Source: an uncultured Polaribacter sp.
GTDB taxonomy: Bacteria; Bacteroidota; Bacteroidia; Flavobacteriales; Flavobacteriaceae
Assembly: GCA_964477255.1 (NCBI GenBank)
Contig: CAYZDK010000001.1
Coordinates: 28,539-92,538, forward strand
Reading direction: 5' to 3'
Length of the DNA: 64,000 bases
Part shown: one piece after another, positions 59,211 through 64,000 of the stretch
Layout: the number at the start of each line of letters is the position of its first letter
Position numbering within the stretch: the first letter of the stretch is position 1
Translations under genes and position numbers: made by a program
Notes under the pieces: model-generated
Seen by the model: the letters and a program-made list of their open reading frames with translations, nothing else
Database searches by the model: none
Told to the model about the DNA's origin: nothing

Positions 59211-61598
59211 TTACACTTCTAACTCTTTAAGTAAATCTTTGTAGGTTATTGCTTTGTTTTCTTCTGTAAACTCTTGGTATTTTACCTCAACCCTTAATGC
59301 TTTTAAACCTGAAATACCTTGTAAATCTTCTATTTCTAAAAACTCTAATTTACCTAGTTTGTTTTTAGATTGTAAGAATTTAATGTACTTCACATATTCT
59401 TCTGCATCTGCTTCTTGCGAATATACAATTGCAATTTTACCTGGTGTTGTAAGTCTTTCAGTTGTTCCTTTTATGTTAGCCTTGTCTATTCTTTTCTTTA
59501 TTATTTCGTATCTAATATTGTAAGCACCATCAACATCAAACTGTTTTTCATCCATCCTAAATTTAATAGACATTGCATTACCATGAACAAGAATTAGAGA
59601 TGCAACTTCTAGCTTAAAAGGCATATTTTTTTGTTCGTGATACACAATATTTTCTAGTTCGCAAGTAGTTTTAAGTTGCCAAATTCGTAAATTATGAAAG
59701 TATAAAGGATTAAATTTTTTTGTTTTTGTAATAGATTGCCCTATATACATGTTGTACTCAATTCCATCTGTTTTGTAACGCTCAAAATAGTGCGGAAACA
59801 TAGCTTGGGCTTCTTTTTGTCTGCTATCTATATGTTGGGCTAACTTATCATTAATGTGATTTACACTTTGTTCATAATCTTTTCGTTTTTCATATACCAC
59901 ATCTAATTCTTTATCTAATCTTTTGGTGTAAATACCAACTTTTTCAAATAGCTCTTTGTTAATCTCTTTTATATGACGAAATACAGGATATATTTCCCTT
60001 TTCAGGAAATCTATAATGGTGATTTCATCTCCTGCGTTTAATCCTTTTTTTACATTATTTAAAAAGCCAGTAACTCTAAACATCAATTCGTTATAAATAG
60101 GAAGAGGTTCGTTTGTACAGGCACTTTCTAGAACAGAGATGGCTAATGTTAGTTGCGTAATTAGGTCTTCTTTAATGGCGTTATTTCTTGCTTCAGAAGA
60201 CCCTTTTATATCTGTTTGCCCAAACAAAGGAAATACATCTTTAAAAACAATTTCGTCTAATTTAGCATTACTATTAGAAGCTTTATTAAAATAATATTTT
60301 TCTGCAGCCTCATAAAATCGCCATTTTACTGAGTTATGAATAGAGGTGTAATTTTCTTGTATGGTTGCTTCTAAGTTATTTTGTCTTTCTTCAAAGACCC
60401 TGTTAACTGCAGCTTCAAAAACAGGAATTATATCCTTTAATTTGTTAATGTTAACAGAGTTTAAATCGTAAGCATTTGGTGAAGATATTTCTAATAAAGC
60501 CAAATCTTCAGAGGAGTTAGCTTGAATAGGAATAAGAACAATACTTTTTAAGTTTTGTTTTTTTAAATTTTTATACAATTGATTTTCGTTAGAAAACTCT
60601 CCATATTTATCAATATCAGAAATAACAAAGGTTTCTTTATTTTCAAAAACTTTTGTCATTATATCTTCGCAGAAAAAGTCTTTATCACACTTTACTTCAT
60701 GGTTATGGTTTAAAATTATACTATCTACACTTTTAATTATTGTTTCATAAGCACTACTATGTGCATTATGTAACAAAGAGTAGCCTAGTTTTAGGTCTTT
60801 TATGCCATAAAAATCTTTTAAATTACTTTCTAAACTTTCTATTAAATTGTCTTCTTCTGCAAGTAAGTTTGCTTTTATGGAAGAAATCATTTCTTCTGCA
60901 GTAACATCGAATAAGTTTATGATACCAAATCCTTTAAATATGTAACTATTTGGCGGAAATTTTTCTCTCCATAAATCTATATTATCATAATTATTTAATA
61001 GCTCTTTAAAGTCCTCTTGGTTAAGTTTTGGAGCTTTATCTGTTCTAGATATTTCTGTAAAATCTGCATTAAAAGCAGCTCTATAATATTTCATTGTTCC
61101 AGTAGTTTTATCTGGAATATTAAAATAAAATGGACGTTTAACATCTGCTTTAATACCATAACAAAAACCTAAGATATAGGTGCATGCCATGATATACATG
61201 CTGTCTTCTTCAAAGTTTCTTACCTTTAACTCAAAGTCTGATCCTGCGTTATTTAAAATATTTTGAAATCTATCTGTAAGTTTAAAAGAAGTAAATGTGA
61301 AAGGAATACTGGCTGCTTTAATTTCATTTAAAAGTAAAGCTTCTGGGAAAAGAGGGTCTAATAATAAATTTATTTCTTCGCTGTATTTTTCTATTAAACT
61401 TAAGTCTGTAAAACCAGAGATTAACTCAGGAGTTTTACTTAAGTGTGCTACAATATTTTTAGCAGATGCATGAAATGGATGCGTTTCATAGCTGTCTTTG
61501 GCATATTTTTCAAACATATCATATACCTTTCTAAAAGATATATTTAGTTGTAATGGTAGATCTAATTCTTCATTAAAATCTTTTCCTATAATCTTCAT
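59211..61598 (-). CDS. GAF-domain protein with a putative divergent class III nucleotide cyclase domain
   Basis: GAF-like segment (VISDID...KSIVLIPI...LLEISS); C-terminal FGQTDIKGSS, RYKTDGI, FDVDG, KKRIDK, PGKIAI, LQGISG motifs in cyclase order. Confidence 0.7.
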   Translation of the reverse strand: MKIIGKDFNEELDLPLQLNISFRKVYDMFEKYAKDSYETHPFHASAKNIVAHLSKTPELISGFTDLSLIEKYSEEINLLLDPLFPEALLLNEIKAASIPFTFTSFKLTDRFQNILNNAGSDFELKVRNFEEDSMYIMACTYILGFCYGIKADVKRPFYFNIPDKTTGTMKYYRAAFNADFTEISRTDKAPKLNQEDFKELLNNYDNIDLWREKFPPNSYIFKGFGIINLFDVTAEEMISSIKANLLAEEDNLIESLESNLKDFYGIKDLKLGYSLLHNAHSSAYETIIKSVDSIILNHNHEVKCDKDFFCEDIMTKVFENKETFVISDIDKYGEFSNENQLYKNLKKQNLKSIVLIPIQANSSEDLALLEISSPNAYDLNSVNINKLKDIIPVFEAAVNRVFEERQNNLEATIQENYTSIHNSVKWRFYEAAEKYYFNKASNSNAKLDEIVFKDVFPLFGQTDIKGSSEARNNAIKEDLITQLTLAISVLESACTNEPLPIYNELMFRVTGFLNNVKKGLNAGDEITIIDFLKREIYPVFRHIKEINKELFEKVGIYTKRLDKELDVVYEKRKDYEQSVNHINDKLAQHIDSRQKEAQAMFPHYFERYKTDGIEYNMYIGQSITKTKKFNPLYFHNLRIWQLKTTCELENIVYHEQKNMPFKLEVASLILVHGNAMSIKFRMDEKQFDVDGAYNIRYEIIKKRIDKANIKGTTERLTTPGKIAIVYSQEADAEEYVKYIKFLQSKNKLGKLEFLEIEDLQGISGLKALRVEVKYQEFTEENKAITYKDLLKELEV

Positions 61599-61625: not shown

Positions 61626-61724
61626 CAAAAAAGAAAAGGGAGTAGTTACTTTATTAAAATTGGGGCATAAAATCACACAAAAAAATAACTACAGGAACGG
61701 CTATTTTAATTATGCATTTTAAAT

Positions 61725-61774
61725 AAAAAAAAGTTGTATTGTGAAATTATGAATTTTACAATACAACTTTTTTT
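61725..61774 (-). terminator. Long AT-rich hairpin terminator of the GT2-GH26 unit
   Basis: AAAAAAAGTTGTATTGTGAAATT / AATTTTACAATACAACTTTTTTT, 23-bp stem with one mismatch, 18 nt after the GH26 stop. Confidence 0.75.
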
Positions 61775-61792: not shown

Positions 61793-62989
61793 TTAAGGCT
61801 TAACAATACTGTCTTTAGGCTGTTTTAAGTAATCTGGCCATAATTCTATTTGCCTTTTTATTTCAGAAGTAACTTCTGTATCGTCTTTTATGTACCAATC
61901 TACATTTTTATAGGTTATGGTACCATCACTAGAATAGTGGAAAAACACTATGGCATTTACATAAGGATACTTTTCATTAAAATTATTTAAAGCATCTCCA
62001 AACCATTTGGCTCTATCACCACCTGGTTTTAGAGAACCAAATTCTGCAATCATAATTGGTTTTTCAAATCCAGATAGTGTTGTATAATATTTACCAAAGA
62101 TTTCTTCAAAAGACCACCAATCGCTCCAACTTGTACTTGTTCCATAATTTAAAACTCCAGTTGCTAGTATATCAACATAATCTGGGCCAGGATAATATTC
62201 ATAAAATTTTTCATAGGATAAATGTGGGCTCCAAACCCAAATTATATTTAATGCACCTGCTTCATCAAAAACATCTTTAACATGTTTAAAAGCAGCAACA
62301 AATTCTTCTGGATCGTTATTTTGAGGGCCCCAAGGGTACCTATAAGGATCATTCATTTCGTGCCCAACTCTTAAATAAATTGGGTAGTTAACTTTTGCAG
62401 CCTCTGTTGCCCATTCCTTTAAATAAGCATCGTAATCTCCGTTTGCTACTGATGCTAAACCATGATTATCTCTTTGTTCTAAGGGTTTAATATTTGGGAA
62501 GTTTTCTTGTGTGAATTTACCTAACCAAGGTTCCCAAGTAATCATGGGAACAGAACCAATTCTAACAATTGCATCTACTTCATCTCTTGGGAATTCGAAT
62601 TCTTTGCCTTCACCCCAAGCTTTATAAATATGAATAATAGGAAAAGTTATGTTTAAAGAATCTTCTAAGTTTATGATTTTTTCATACGAAGTTCCATTAT
62701 CTTCATCTGCAGCACCAAAAAGAATATATTTTGATTTTAGAAGTGCAAATTTATTATCTCTTTGGTCGTCAAACCATTTTAGCTTTTTTTCTCTATTTTG
62801 TTCTCTATTACCAAGAATGTTTTCATGTTCAATGTCTTTAACTAAGTTACCCAAACTCTCTAGTATACCTCCTAGAGGTCCTTTAGAACTTTTACTAACA
62901 GCAGATAAGCCATAAATAATAAAGTAGCCAATAGCCAATGCTAGTAACACATTAAAAAGTCTTTTATACTTGTTTTTAGATGATGACAT
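61793..62989 (-). CDS. Membrane-anchored glycoside hydrolase family 26
   Basis: N-terminal TM; PMITWEPW, RVGHEMND (acid/base), WVWSP, YYPGPDYVD, IMIAEFG (nucleophile). Confidence 0.88.
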   Translation of the reverse strand: MSSSKNKYKRLFNVLLALAIGYFIIYGLSAVSKSSKGPLGGILESLGNLVKDIEHENILGNREQNREKKLKWFDDQRDNKFALLKSKYILFGAADEDNGTSYEKIINLEDSLNITFPIIHIYKAWGEGKEFEFPRDEVDAIVRIGSVPMITWEPWLGKFTQENFPNIKPLEQRDNHGLASVANGDYDAYLKEWATEAAKVNYPIYLRVGHEMNDPYRYPWGPQNNDPEEFVAAFKHVKDVFDEAGALNIIWVWSPHLSYEKFYEYYPGPDYVDILATGVLNYGTSTSWSDWWSFEEIFGKYYTTLSGFEKPIMIAEFGSLKPGGDRAKWFGDALNNFNEKYPYVNAIVFFHYSSDGTITYKNVDWYIKDDTEVTSEIKRQIELWPDYLKQPKDSIVKP

Positions 62990-63030
62990 AGTCTAAGGTT
63001 TTTACAATATTAGTTGTTTTTTGTGTTCTT

Positions 63031-64000
63031 TTATTCTTTAATCTTAAATTTTTTATTTGCAGATATAATTATTCTATCCCAAGCATTTTCTGTTTTAATG
63101 AAAAGCGATTGATAGGCAGCAGCAATTCCGCCAACAAACTGTAAAAAAGCTATTAAAGCAAACCCAAACATTGCCCAAGTTCTTTCTGCAGTTAGTATTA
63201 ATTCTGATTCAGAAACATAATATCTTCTTTCAATATAAACTCCTGTTATCATTAGAATAAAAATTAAACAATAGATTAAAAGAGGTTTAACAAAAGGGCT
63301 CATAAATTTCTTATCGGCAACTTTTGCAGTAGGAATGTATGGTACTTTCTTATTAATAATGGCCAAATAGAATGCATAGGTATATATTGGCCAACAAGAA
63401 TACTTTAAAACCATTCCTCTCCAATGTATGCCTTTTTCTGTTTTTCTATCACAGAAAAAGTTTTGAGCGTAGGCATATATTAGAATAGCAATTACAAGTA
63501 TTGGTGTTCCTACAGCTATAAACTCTCCAAAATCCATACTTGCAGGAATAATTTTTGTAGCAAAAAATAGCAGAGGTATAAAAACAAAAAACGCTGTCAT
63601 TGGGCCAACCAAGTAGTAAGTACCTATAGAGATGTAAGAAACTTTTTGCCAAAAAGTAAGGCCTTTTGATGCTTTTGGGAATTCATCAAATAACATTTCA
63701 TAAACTCCTCTTGCCCATTTTAGTTGTTGTTTACAGTACGAAGAAAAATCTTCAGGCACCAATCCTCTACTCACAATTACCGGGTTGTAAATAGATTTCC
63801 AGCCTTTTGAGTGAATACGAATGGATGTATTTAAATCTTCTGATAAACCAGTTGCATGTCCTCCTATACTTTCTAGCGCTTTTCTTCTAAAGGTACAATT
63901 TGCACCTATAGCAACAGCACCTCCATAACCATATAAACCCATTTGCGTTGGGCCATAAAAGGTATAAGTTTGTTCTGCTGCACCTTGTGCTGTTAAAGAC
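63031..64000 (-). CDS. Processive GT2 glycan synthase (BcsA/CesA-like), 5' part outside the window
   Basis: GANCTFRR, GLSEDL (catalytic ED), GLVPED, QQLKWARG (QxxRW variant), C-terminal TMs; frame stays open upstream of 63942 to the window edge (SLTAQGAAEQTYTFYGPTQ). Confidence 0.88.
   Translation of the reverse strand, partial: SLTAQGAAEQTYTFYGPTQMGLYGYGGAVAIGANCTFRRKALESIGGHATGLSEDLNTSIRIHSKGWKSIYNPVIVSRGLVPEDFSSYCKQQLKWARGVYEMLFDEFPKASKGLTFWQKVSYISIGTYYLVGPMTAFFVFIPLLFFATKIIPASMDFGEFIAVGTPILVIAILIYAYAQNFFCDRKTEKGIHWRGMVLKYSCWPIYTYAFYLAIINKKVPYIPTAKVADKKFMSPFVKPLLIYCLIFILMITGVYIERRYYVSESELILTAERTWAMFGFALIAFLQFVGGIAAAYQSLFIKTENAWDRIIISANKKFKIKE

Follow-up and report, generated by a model that had tools for sequence, protein, structure and literature searches.

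The window analysed here is a stretch of 64,000 nucleotides from an uncultured Polaribacter sp. (assembly GCA_964477255.1, 94.5% complete; contig CAYZDK010000001.1, positions 28,539 to 92,538 or G000:C1:28539-92538), and its right-hand end cuts through an operon on the minus strand that encodes a cellulose synthase-like glycosyltransferase of family 2 (GT2) and a glycoside hydrolase of family 26 (GH26). The GT2 open reading frame (ORF) is represented in the window by its C-terminal 322 codons (63031..64000) and is truncated by the window end. An earlier note, made from the letters of the window alone, had placed the start of the operon beyond that end, and this was borne out when the adjoining contig was retrieved (L002; window position = L002 position + 59461). 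The complete GT2 gene encodes 536 amino acids and reaches window-equivalent position 64641, and its start overlaps by 1 nt with the stop of a gene for a 503-amino acid tetratricopeptide repeat (TPR)/beta-barrel porin, which lies outside the window. A spacer of exactly 41 nt (62990..63030, minus strand, coordinates re-checked), the distance originally read, separates the GT2 gene from that of a membrane-anchored GH26-family glycosidase of 398 amino acids (61793..62989, minus strand). Directly after the GH26 stop the unit is closed, as had been proposed, by a long intrinsic terminator on the same strand (61722..61771, with the hairpin at 61729-61771), a perfect hairpin with a 20-bp stem and a 3-nt loop followed by a T-run, which from its flanking A-run is potentially bidirectional. 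A BcsA-like GT2, a GH26 hydrolase and a BcsC-like porin are together the components expected of a synthase-dependent exopolysaccharide machine; the porin, GT2 and GH26 genes therefore constitute a three-gene operon of this kind, of which the window holds the distal two genes.

The GT2 protein matched PF13632, PF13641 and PF03552 in Pfam, while scoring well below the cut-offs of the NCBIfam cellulose synthase catalytic model TIGR03030 (177.6 bits against 699) and of TIGR03937 (61 bits against 422). A phmmer search of PDB sequences returned the E. coli and Cereibacter BcsA proteins at E 1e-36 over residues 52-500. An AlphaFold2 model built with 27 homologues (pLDDT 88.9, pTM 0.89) was placed by Foldseek closest to BcsA (4p00 and 9b8v, TMq 0.77-0.78), then to plant CesA and CslF6, and then to hyaluronan synthases. 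Re-translation confirmed the motifs on which the gene had been called a processive GT2, GLSEDLNT at 63826-63849, containing the catalytic Asp (D269, within SED), and QQLKW at 63715-63729. In the alignment with BcsA, DDG and DxD (DPDH) are retained, HAKAGN is replaced by GAKAGK, the gating-loop motif FxVTxK by YIPTAK, TED by SED, FFCGS by VAIGA and QxxRW by QQLKW. The last of these changes is a feature of a large clade: QQLKW was found in 70 of 71 GT2 orthologues, the other one carrying QQIKW, and among the 150 nearest 50%-identity representatives, drawn from 1.8 billion proteins, 131 have QxxKW and 14 QxxRW. The fold and most of the motifs support a BcsA-type processive synthase. About 35 residues of the protein remain beyond the last transmembrane helix, and it thus has no PilZ domain. 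Searches of the genome for PilZ (PF07238), GGDEF (PF00990) and BcsB (PF03170) also returned nothing, with positive search controls.

The GH26 protein matched PF02156 above the cut-off (38.9 bits against 20.2), and the two catalytic glutamates claimed for it were confirmed by re-translation, E211 in HEMN (62351-62362) and E316 in IAEF (62039-62050). These align with the acid/base E109 and the nucleophile E222 of CtLic26A, the lichenase module of C. thermocellum CelH, and both are invariant in 28 homologues, as are TWEPW, the whole HEMN motif, YPW and several more Trp residues; profile match and aligned glutamates alike argue for membership of the CAZy family. GH26 enzymes are clan GH-A (beta/alpha)8 retaining enzymes with the catalytic Glu on strands 4 and 7, and the lichenase among them (EC 3.2.1.73) cleaves mixed-linkage glucan at those beta-1,4 bonds that come after a beta-1,3 bond. 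When solved structures were searched with the single sequence, the CelH lichenase module was the sole strong match (E 2e-34) and mannanases came no better than E 1e-5. A profile of the 28 members gave 158.8 bits for CtLic26A against 41.9 for the best mannanase, 30.1 for the beta-1,3-xylanase XYL4 and 30.0 for the mixed-linkage xylanase AlXyn26A. By these sequence comparisons the enzyme is in the lichenase branch of the family and outside the mannanase branch.

The membrane anchor of the GH26 was likewise confirmed, as a hydrophobic segment at 62891-62962 (residues ~10-33, with a 20-residue helix). Because a K/R-rich stretch precedes this helix, the catalytic domain is predicted by the positive-inside rule to face the periplasm. 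The juxtamembrane segment that follows (about residues 35-110) is conserved in the family, including G37, P38, E54, R62, R66 and W72, and this conservation suggests a putative docking role. CtLic26A shares with the window enzyme the HE acid/base, the AEF nucleophile, TWEPW, YPW and other aromatic residues (PDB 2bv9, 2cip). In contrast, however, CtLic26A is a secreted, cellulosomal, catabolic module without the conserved ~75-residue juxtamembrane segment, whereas the window GH26 is anchored in the membrane and stands in a biosynthetic context.

The 503-amino acid porin matched only TPR models in Pfam and found no sequence-level match among PDB sequences. Its AlphaFold2 model (pLDDT 90.2) comprises an N-terminal signal or anchor helix, nine helices (residues 47-196) and a beta-barrel (199-502), and Foldseek placed E. 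coli BcsC at the top (9b8a/6tzk, E 1e-16), followed by PelBC (9h80) and PgaA (4y25), with generic porins after these. The modelled protein thus joins TPR helices to a predicted outer-membrane barrel, roughly 16-stranded, in the manner of BcsC.

To place the operon among its relatives, 160 Bacteroidota and metagenome loci were fetched, 80 of them metagenomic. The order porin-GT2-GH26 was seen in every genome and metagenome locus with enough flanking sequence, the exceptions lying only at short contig ends, and clustering of all flanking ORFs from 71 loci revealed no other universally conserved neighbour. GH26 relatives occur in at least 587 species in a scan of one genome per species, the best 80 being nearly all Bacteroidota, and this class of operon is widespread in the phylum. 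Its distribution is patchy: when 401 genomes were sampled evenly across the phylum, 5 of them, including that of the window itself, had orthologues with at least 49% identity, and neither of the two other genomes of the same genus in that sample had one. The remaining strong GT2 matches in the sample were proteins of about 1250 amino acids.

Proteins of this length account for at least 45 of the 150 nearest GT2 representatives and carry a GH26-like domain fused behind the GT2 (representatives P0133-P0226; for example L169:2094-5864, with its neighbour at L169:5851-7185, both on the minus strand). The fused GH26-like domain is up to 35% identical to the window GH26, with E-values down to 1e-50 in blastp and phmmer searches; Pfam detects only the GT2 in a 1256-amino acid member, the GH26-like module being detected by blastp and phmmer. 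The GT2 domains of the fused family are 38-43% identical to the window GT2 and carry QQLKW and (A/S/T/C)ED. At the one locus examined, the adjacent gene encodes a GH158-like protein (E 1e-57 to GH158 structures), GH158 being a family of endo-beta-1,3-glucanases, and no TPR porin gene lies beside the fusion, whereas the window operon has one. The fused proteins thus combine in one polypeptide, with a further C-terminal region, what the window operon encodes in separate genes. The pairing of hydrolase and synthase suggested in the earlier note is upheld by this fusion in a sister family together with the conserved synteny across the fetched loci; both show that the GH26 belongs to the biosynthetic machine, and a place in a catabolic locus, which that note had considered, is excluded.

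Contigs holding the operon were also encountered in bins named Saccharibacteria, Limnohabitans and Porticoccaceae (L050, L052, L057; P0018). As their GT2s nest among Bacteroidota in the GT2 tree, binning contamination rather than transfer is suggested. A literature search found no paper describing the operon; a GH26 in an Actinoplanes Wzx/Wzy cluster (PMC13390465) was considered and set aside as unrelated in context.

The operon most resembles the Bcs cellulose systems of E. coli and Cereibacter sphaeroides (4hg6, 4p00, 9b8v, 9b8a, 6tzk). Common to both are a BcsA-fold GT2 with DxD, (T/S)ED, Qxx(R/K)W and a gating-loop-like motif, and, within one operon, a dedicated periplasmic endo-glycanase and an outer-membrane TPR/beta-barrel exporter. 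In contrast to Bcs, the window operon has no BcsB, the genome has neither PilZ nor cyclic di-GMP (c-di-GMP) enzymes, the hydrolase is a GH26 instead of the GH8 BcsZ, the GT2 has QxxKW for QxxRW and VAIGA for FFCGS, and the porin has about 5 TPR helix pairs where BcsC has a long TPR region. The view that this is no canonical cellulose operon, implied from the outset, thus held when PilZ, BcsB and GH8 were all found to be missing. With PgaABCD, Pel and alginate systems the operon shares an inner-membrane polymerase, a periplasmic hydrolase and a TPR/beta-barrel exporter; unlike them it has no deacetylase and no c-di-GMP receptor of the PgaD/PelD/Alg44 type, and its glycosyltransferase and glycoside hydrolase belong to other families. 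Neither the PgaB deacetylase-hydrolase nor PgaD was found in or beside the operon in 71 loci. While the operon works like Bcs, Pga and Pel, it therefore belongs to none of them. Two other BcsA-like GT2s, BgsA from Sinorhizobium meliloti (bgsBA) and RiGT2 from Romboutsia ilealis (PMC10374906), have been proposed or shown to make (1,3;1,4)-beta-glucan, the polymer class that the lichenase-type partner suggests for the window operon. According to that paper, RiGT2 has QxxRW together with a PilZ domain required for its activity, and BgsA, which has BgsB as its partner, is a c-di-GMP-binding protein; no GH26 or TPR porin is described there for either, and the comparison with the window GT2 is by description only.

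In about 30% of the related operons a cassette of three further genes accompanies the synthase. Of 71 genome loci, 25 carry it as a 2.8-kb unit that separates the GT2 gene from the GH26 gene, as in Polaribacter vadi (L006:5235-7998; also L008-L010, L012-L015, L018, L019, L023, L024, L026, L029, L030, L033, L036, L040, L042, L043, L046, L060, L064, L065 and L082). The same three genes lie upstream of the porin in seven more loci, five genomic and two metagenomic (L047, L058, L061, L068, L080, L118, L146), and with the cassette at two positions, its association with the operon has outlasted rearrangement. The genes encode a glucose-1-phosphate cytidylyltransferase (TIGR02623, 392 bits, cut-off 300), a CDP-glucose 4,6-dehydratase (TIGR02622, 483 bits, cut-off 278) and a 301-amino acid 4-ketoreductase-like short-chain dehydrogenase/reductase (SDR), whose best solved relative is the GDP-6-deoxy-D-lyxo-4-hexulose reductase 2pk3; no 3-dehydrase is found in the cassette. 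From these matches the cassette would provide a route to a CDP-6-deoxy-D-hexose.

The window operon has no such cassette. In the GT2 tree it falls in an eight-row cassette-less Polaribacter subclade nested, with support of 99-100, among cassette-bearing loci of Polaribacter, Wenyingzhuangia and Ochrovirga, and this nesting indicates that the window lineage lost the cassette secondarily. Neither the cytidylyltransferase nor the CDP-glucose dehydratase was found elsewhere in the 94.5%-complete window genome; the dehydratase is likewise missing in four of five other cassette-less genomes, and the cytidylyltransferase in all four that were searched. All three operon ORFs are intact throughout the cassette-less subclade (8 loci, 16 sequences). 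Comparison with a relative from that subclade gave dN/dS values of 0.07 for the GT2, 0.11 for the GH26 and 0.20 for the porin, showing that the operon has been under purifying selection after the loss of the cassette.

When all GT2 columns were compared, position 102 was the only one that separates cassette-bearing from cassette-less loci. The residue is the variable x of an otherwise invariant loop, TTS-x-PGEP, which follows strand beta1 of the nucleotide-binding domain and in a HMMER alignment corresponds to the PTYNE segment of BcsA, a segment that we take to line the nucleotide pocket in GT-A enzymes. Among 152 loci, Ser102 occurs in 102 cassette-less ones, while the 41 cassette-bearing loci have Ala (31), Thr (7) or Tyr (3); the window subclade has Ser102 and its cassette-bearing sisters Ala102. 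Of the 144 judgeable loci, 143 show this correspondence, and the one that departs from it has Thr with no visible cassette on a contig of 2,047 bp; but the correspondence rests on only 2-3 phylogenetically independent contrasts and is thus a lead, not a result. One further protein, P0088, is a lone Ser102 nested in an Ala102 clade, and its locus would be predicted to have no cassette; a metagenome scan seeded with it gave a best match of 73% identity and did not return the P0088 contig. No GH26 column tracks the cassette, which fits polymers with similar backbones.

We propose, with a probability of roughly 60%, that the operon synthesises and exports a beta-glucan made from UDP-glucose, probably with both beta-1,3 and beta-1,4 links. 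That the polymer is some beta-glucan other than plain cellulose, or one that contains beta-1,3 links, we hold to be slightly better than an even bet. A gluco-configured polymer is favoured by the lichenase-type partner, the GH158-like neighbour of the fused relatives, the glucose-1-phosphate-based cassette and the UDP-glucose metabolism of the genome. UDP-glucose is a metabolite in this organism, as the genome encodes GalE (399 bits, cut-off 262) and a UDP-glucose-type nucleotide-sugar dehydrogenase, followed by a UXS/ArnA-like SDR. On this proposal the inner-membrane GT2, with its BcsA fold, two N-terminal transmembrane helices and no PilZ domain, would polymerise a beta-linked glycan from a nucleotide sugar and thread it through its own channel. 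The anchored lichenase-like GH26 would trim or clear the nascent chain in the periplasm, in the manner of BcsZ, PslG or AlgL, and the TPR domain of the porin would then take up the chain for export through the barrel. Control would be by something other than c-di-GMP.

Several observations weigh against this proposal. The GT2 has VAIGA in place of the FFCGS acceptor-site motif, as well as SED and QxxKW, so that its donor or linkage may differ from those of cellulose synthases, and no classical GalU was found in the 94.5%-complete assembly or in three other carriers. The GH26 has an insertion of about 20 residues after TWEPW relative to CtLic26A, and with one characterised lichenase in the family the transfer of specificity from it is weak. 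Furthermore, the ancestors of the window lineage carried the cassette; the ancestral product may have been a polymer of 6-deoxyhexose, and UDP-glucose is a putative donor for the present-day enzyme.

As an alternative, the GT2 could make plain cellulose from UDP-glucose, with the GH26 as an endo-beta-1,4-glucanase in place of BcsZ. The BcsA proteins are the closest solved relatives of the GT2, homologues are annotated as cellulose synthase by JGI, the porin has BcsC as its best structural match, and the genome uses UDP-glucose. We nonetheless judge cellulose unlikely, since the nearest characterised GH26, CtLic26A, is a strict mixed-linkage glucanase, BcsB and PilZ are missing from the genome and GH8 from the operon, and FFCGS, TED and QxxRW are changed across a large clade; nor would a CDP-6-deoxyhexose pathway and a GH158-like enzyme be expected among the relatives of a cellulose synthase. 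The earlier note had put forward a beta-mannan or glucomannan beside a mixed-linkage glycan, and here the two halves of its proposal part. A CslA-like synthase using GDP-mannose with a GH26 mannanase could be envisaged, as plant CslA enzymes are CesA-like GT2s. It is also true that most characterised GH26 enzymes are beta-mannanases (PMC10470212). However, the profile search sets the window GH26 with the lichenase (159 bits, rounded) and apart from the mannanases (42 bits at best), no ManC-type guanylyltransferase was found in the 94.5%-complete window genome, and mannan is thus very improbable. The window genome has four NTP_transferase-family genes (GlgC, a GlmU/long-RmlA-like protein and two weak matches), none of them ManC; the ManC model matched only a 126-amino acid cupin fragment there. 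Polaribacter sp. R77954 (G001), whose genome is complete and has the same operon, gave no match to that model, and no mannose-1-phosphate guanylyltransferase domain was found in it. The operon-linked sugar pathway of the relatives, moreover, begins at glucose-1-phosphate. The evidence favours the mixed-linkage half.

Another homopolymer, whether a beta-xylan from UDP-xylose, a GlcNAc polymer or a 6-deoxyhexose glycan with its precursor genes in the unassembled 5% of the genome, appears improbable to us, more so than cellulose. A UDP-GlcA decarboxylase/UXS-like SDR does adjoin the UDP-glucose dehydrogenase-type gene, UDP-GlcNAc is the only donor certain in every carrier, and the ancestors of the lineage had the CDP cassette; beta-1,3-xylanases and mixed-linkage xylanases are, besides, known within GH26 (PMC10470212). 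Yet the GH26 xylanases score only ~30 bits with the family profile, no deacetylase or PgaD-type partner is present at the operon, the CDP-sugar pathway was found neither in the window genome nor in three of the four other cassette-less genomes searched, and the Ser102 of the window is common to all 102 cassette-less loci. That the operon might be a relic, productless and decaying since it lost the cassette, would agree with the nesting of its subclade among cassette-bearing Polaribacter loci and with the missing precursor pathway in the searched window genome; with three ORFs intact throughout the cassette-less subclade, low dN/dS in each and intact catalytic residues, it is scarcely credible.

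A more speculative extension, which we offer tentatively and consider doubtful as it stands, is that the QQLKW synthases form a donor-switching family. Cassette-bearing operons would polymerise CDP-6-deoxy-D-hexose into a 6-deoxy-beta-glycan, cassette-less ones would use a housekeeping UDP-sugar, and residue 102 would mark, and perhaps cause, the switch. The window GT2 would then be a natural revertant, its operon having lost the cassette and its residue 102 having returned to Ser. If true, donor switching would make the cassette-bearing enzymes the first BcsA-type synthases to depend on a CDP-sugar, and their product a polymer of a new kind. For the study of donor specificity in processive GT2 synthases, the relatives with the cassette amount to a clean natural experiment.

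Synthase-dependent exopolysaccharide systems, those for cellulose, poly-N-acetylglucosamine (PNAG), Pel and alginate, are the best understood machines of the biofilm matrix. To our knowledge most of what is described of them comes from Proteobacteria and Firmicutes, and c-di-GMP acts as the switch in every one. The window operon would represent a pared-down relative of a fourth type in Bacteroidota, lacking both a c-di-GMP module and BcsB. Bacteroidota dominate the degradation of marine particles and algal blooms, and laminarin-like glucans are eaten by the same clades; if marine and freshwater flavobacteria secrete a glucan of this sort, it would bear on particle aggregation and carbon cycling. 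The question of the donor can be tested directly, as several carriers are in culture. Among these, Polaribacter vadi B2M17, Flavobacterium aciduliphilum DSM 25663 and Ochrovirga pacifica S85 have the cassette, whereas Polaribacter sp. R77954 and, among the Algoriphagus spp., Algoriphagus boritolerans DSM 17298 are without it.

Upstream of the porin gene, at a distance of 90 nt and on the same strand, lies a gene for a 651-amino acid surface-type protein with Big_9/cadherin-like and BspA-type LRR_5 leucine-rich repeats (LRR) in Pfam (L002:6782-8737, window-equivalent 66243-68198, minus strand), with a divergent gene beyond it. Twelve loci of the Polaribacter group, some with the CDP cassette and some without it, have a homologue at the same place. 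By eye, Bacteroidota-type TAnnTTTG-like motifs were noted upstream of the LRR gene, and only an imperfect one upstream of the porin gene, so that the LRR gene may be the first of the operon transcript. A sigma-70 promoter scan gave no signal above that of shuffled sequences, the sigma-70 consensus being unsuited to Bacteroidota.

On the other side of the terminator, within the window, a 795-amino acid gene (59211-61598, minus strand) has no Pfam match. It follows the GH26 gene in Polaribacter loci of both cassette types, with homologues of 62-69% identity in L003, L004, L006, L008, L009, L013 and L027, and is not found in this position outside the genus; its product might conceivably regulate the synthase, which lacks PilZ. 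On the contig outside the window, the gene for the GTPase Der/EngA is seemingly split into two overlapping ORFs (L002:9633-11074, minus strand), one of 195 amino acids with the first GTPase domain and one of 286 amino acids with the second GTPase and KH-like domains, which is probably a frameshift or assembly error in this metagenome-assembled genome. A few genes upstream of the operon, a 955-amino acid beta-helix protein (L002:12371-15238, minus strand, also outside the window) carries two F5/8 type C domains and a type IX secretion system (T9SS) C-terminal sorting domain, and is a candidate secreted carbohydrate-binding or carbohydrate-active protein.

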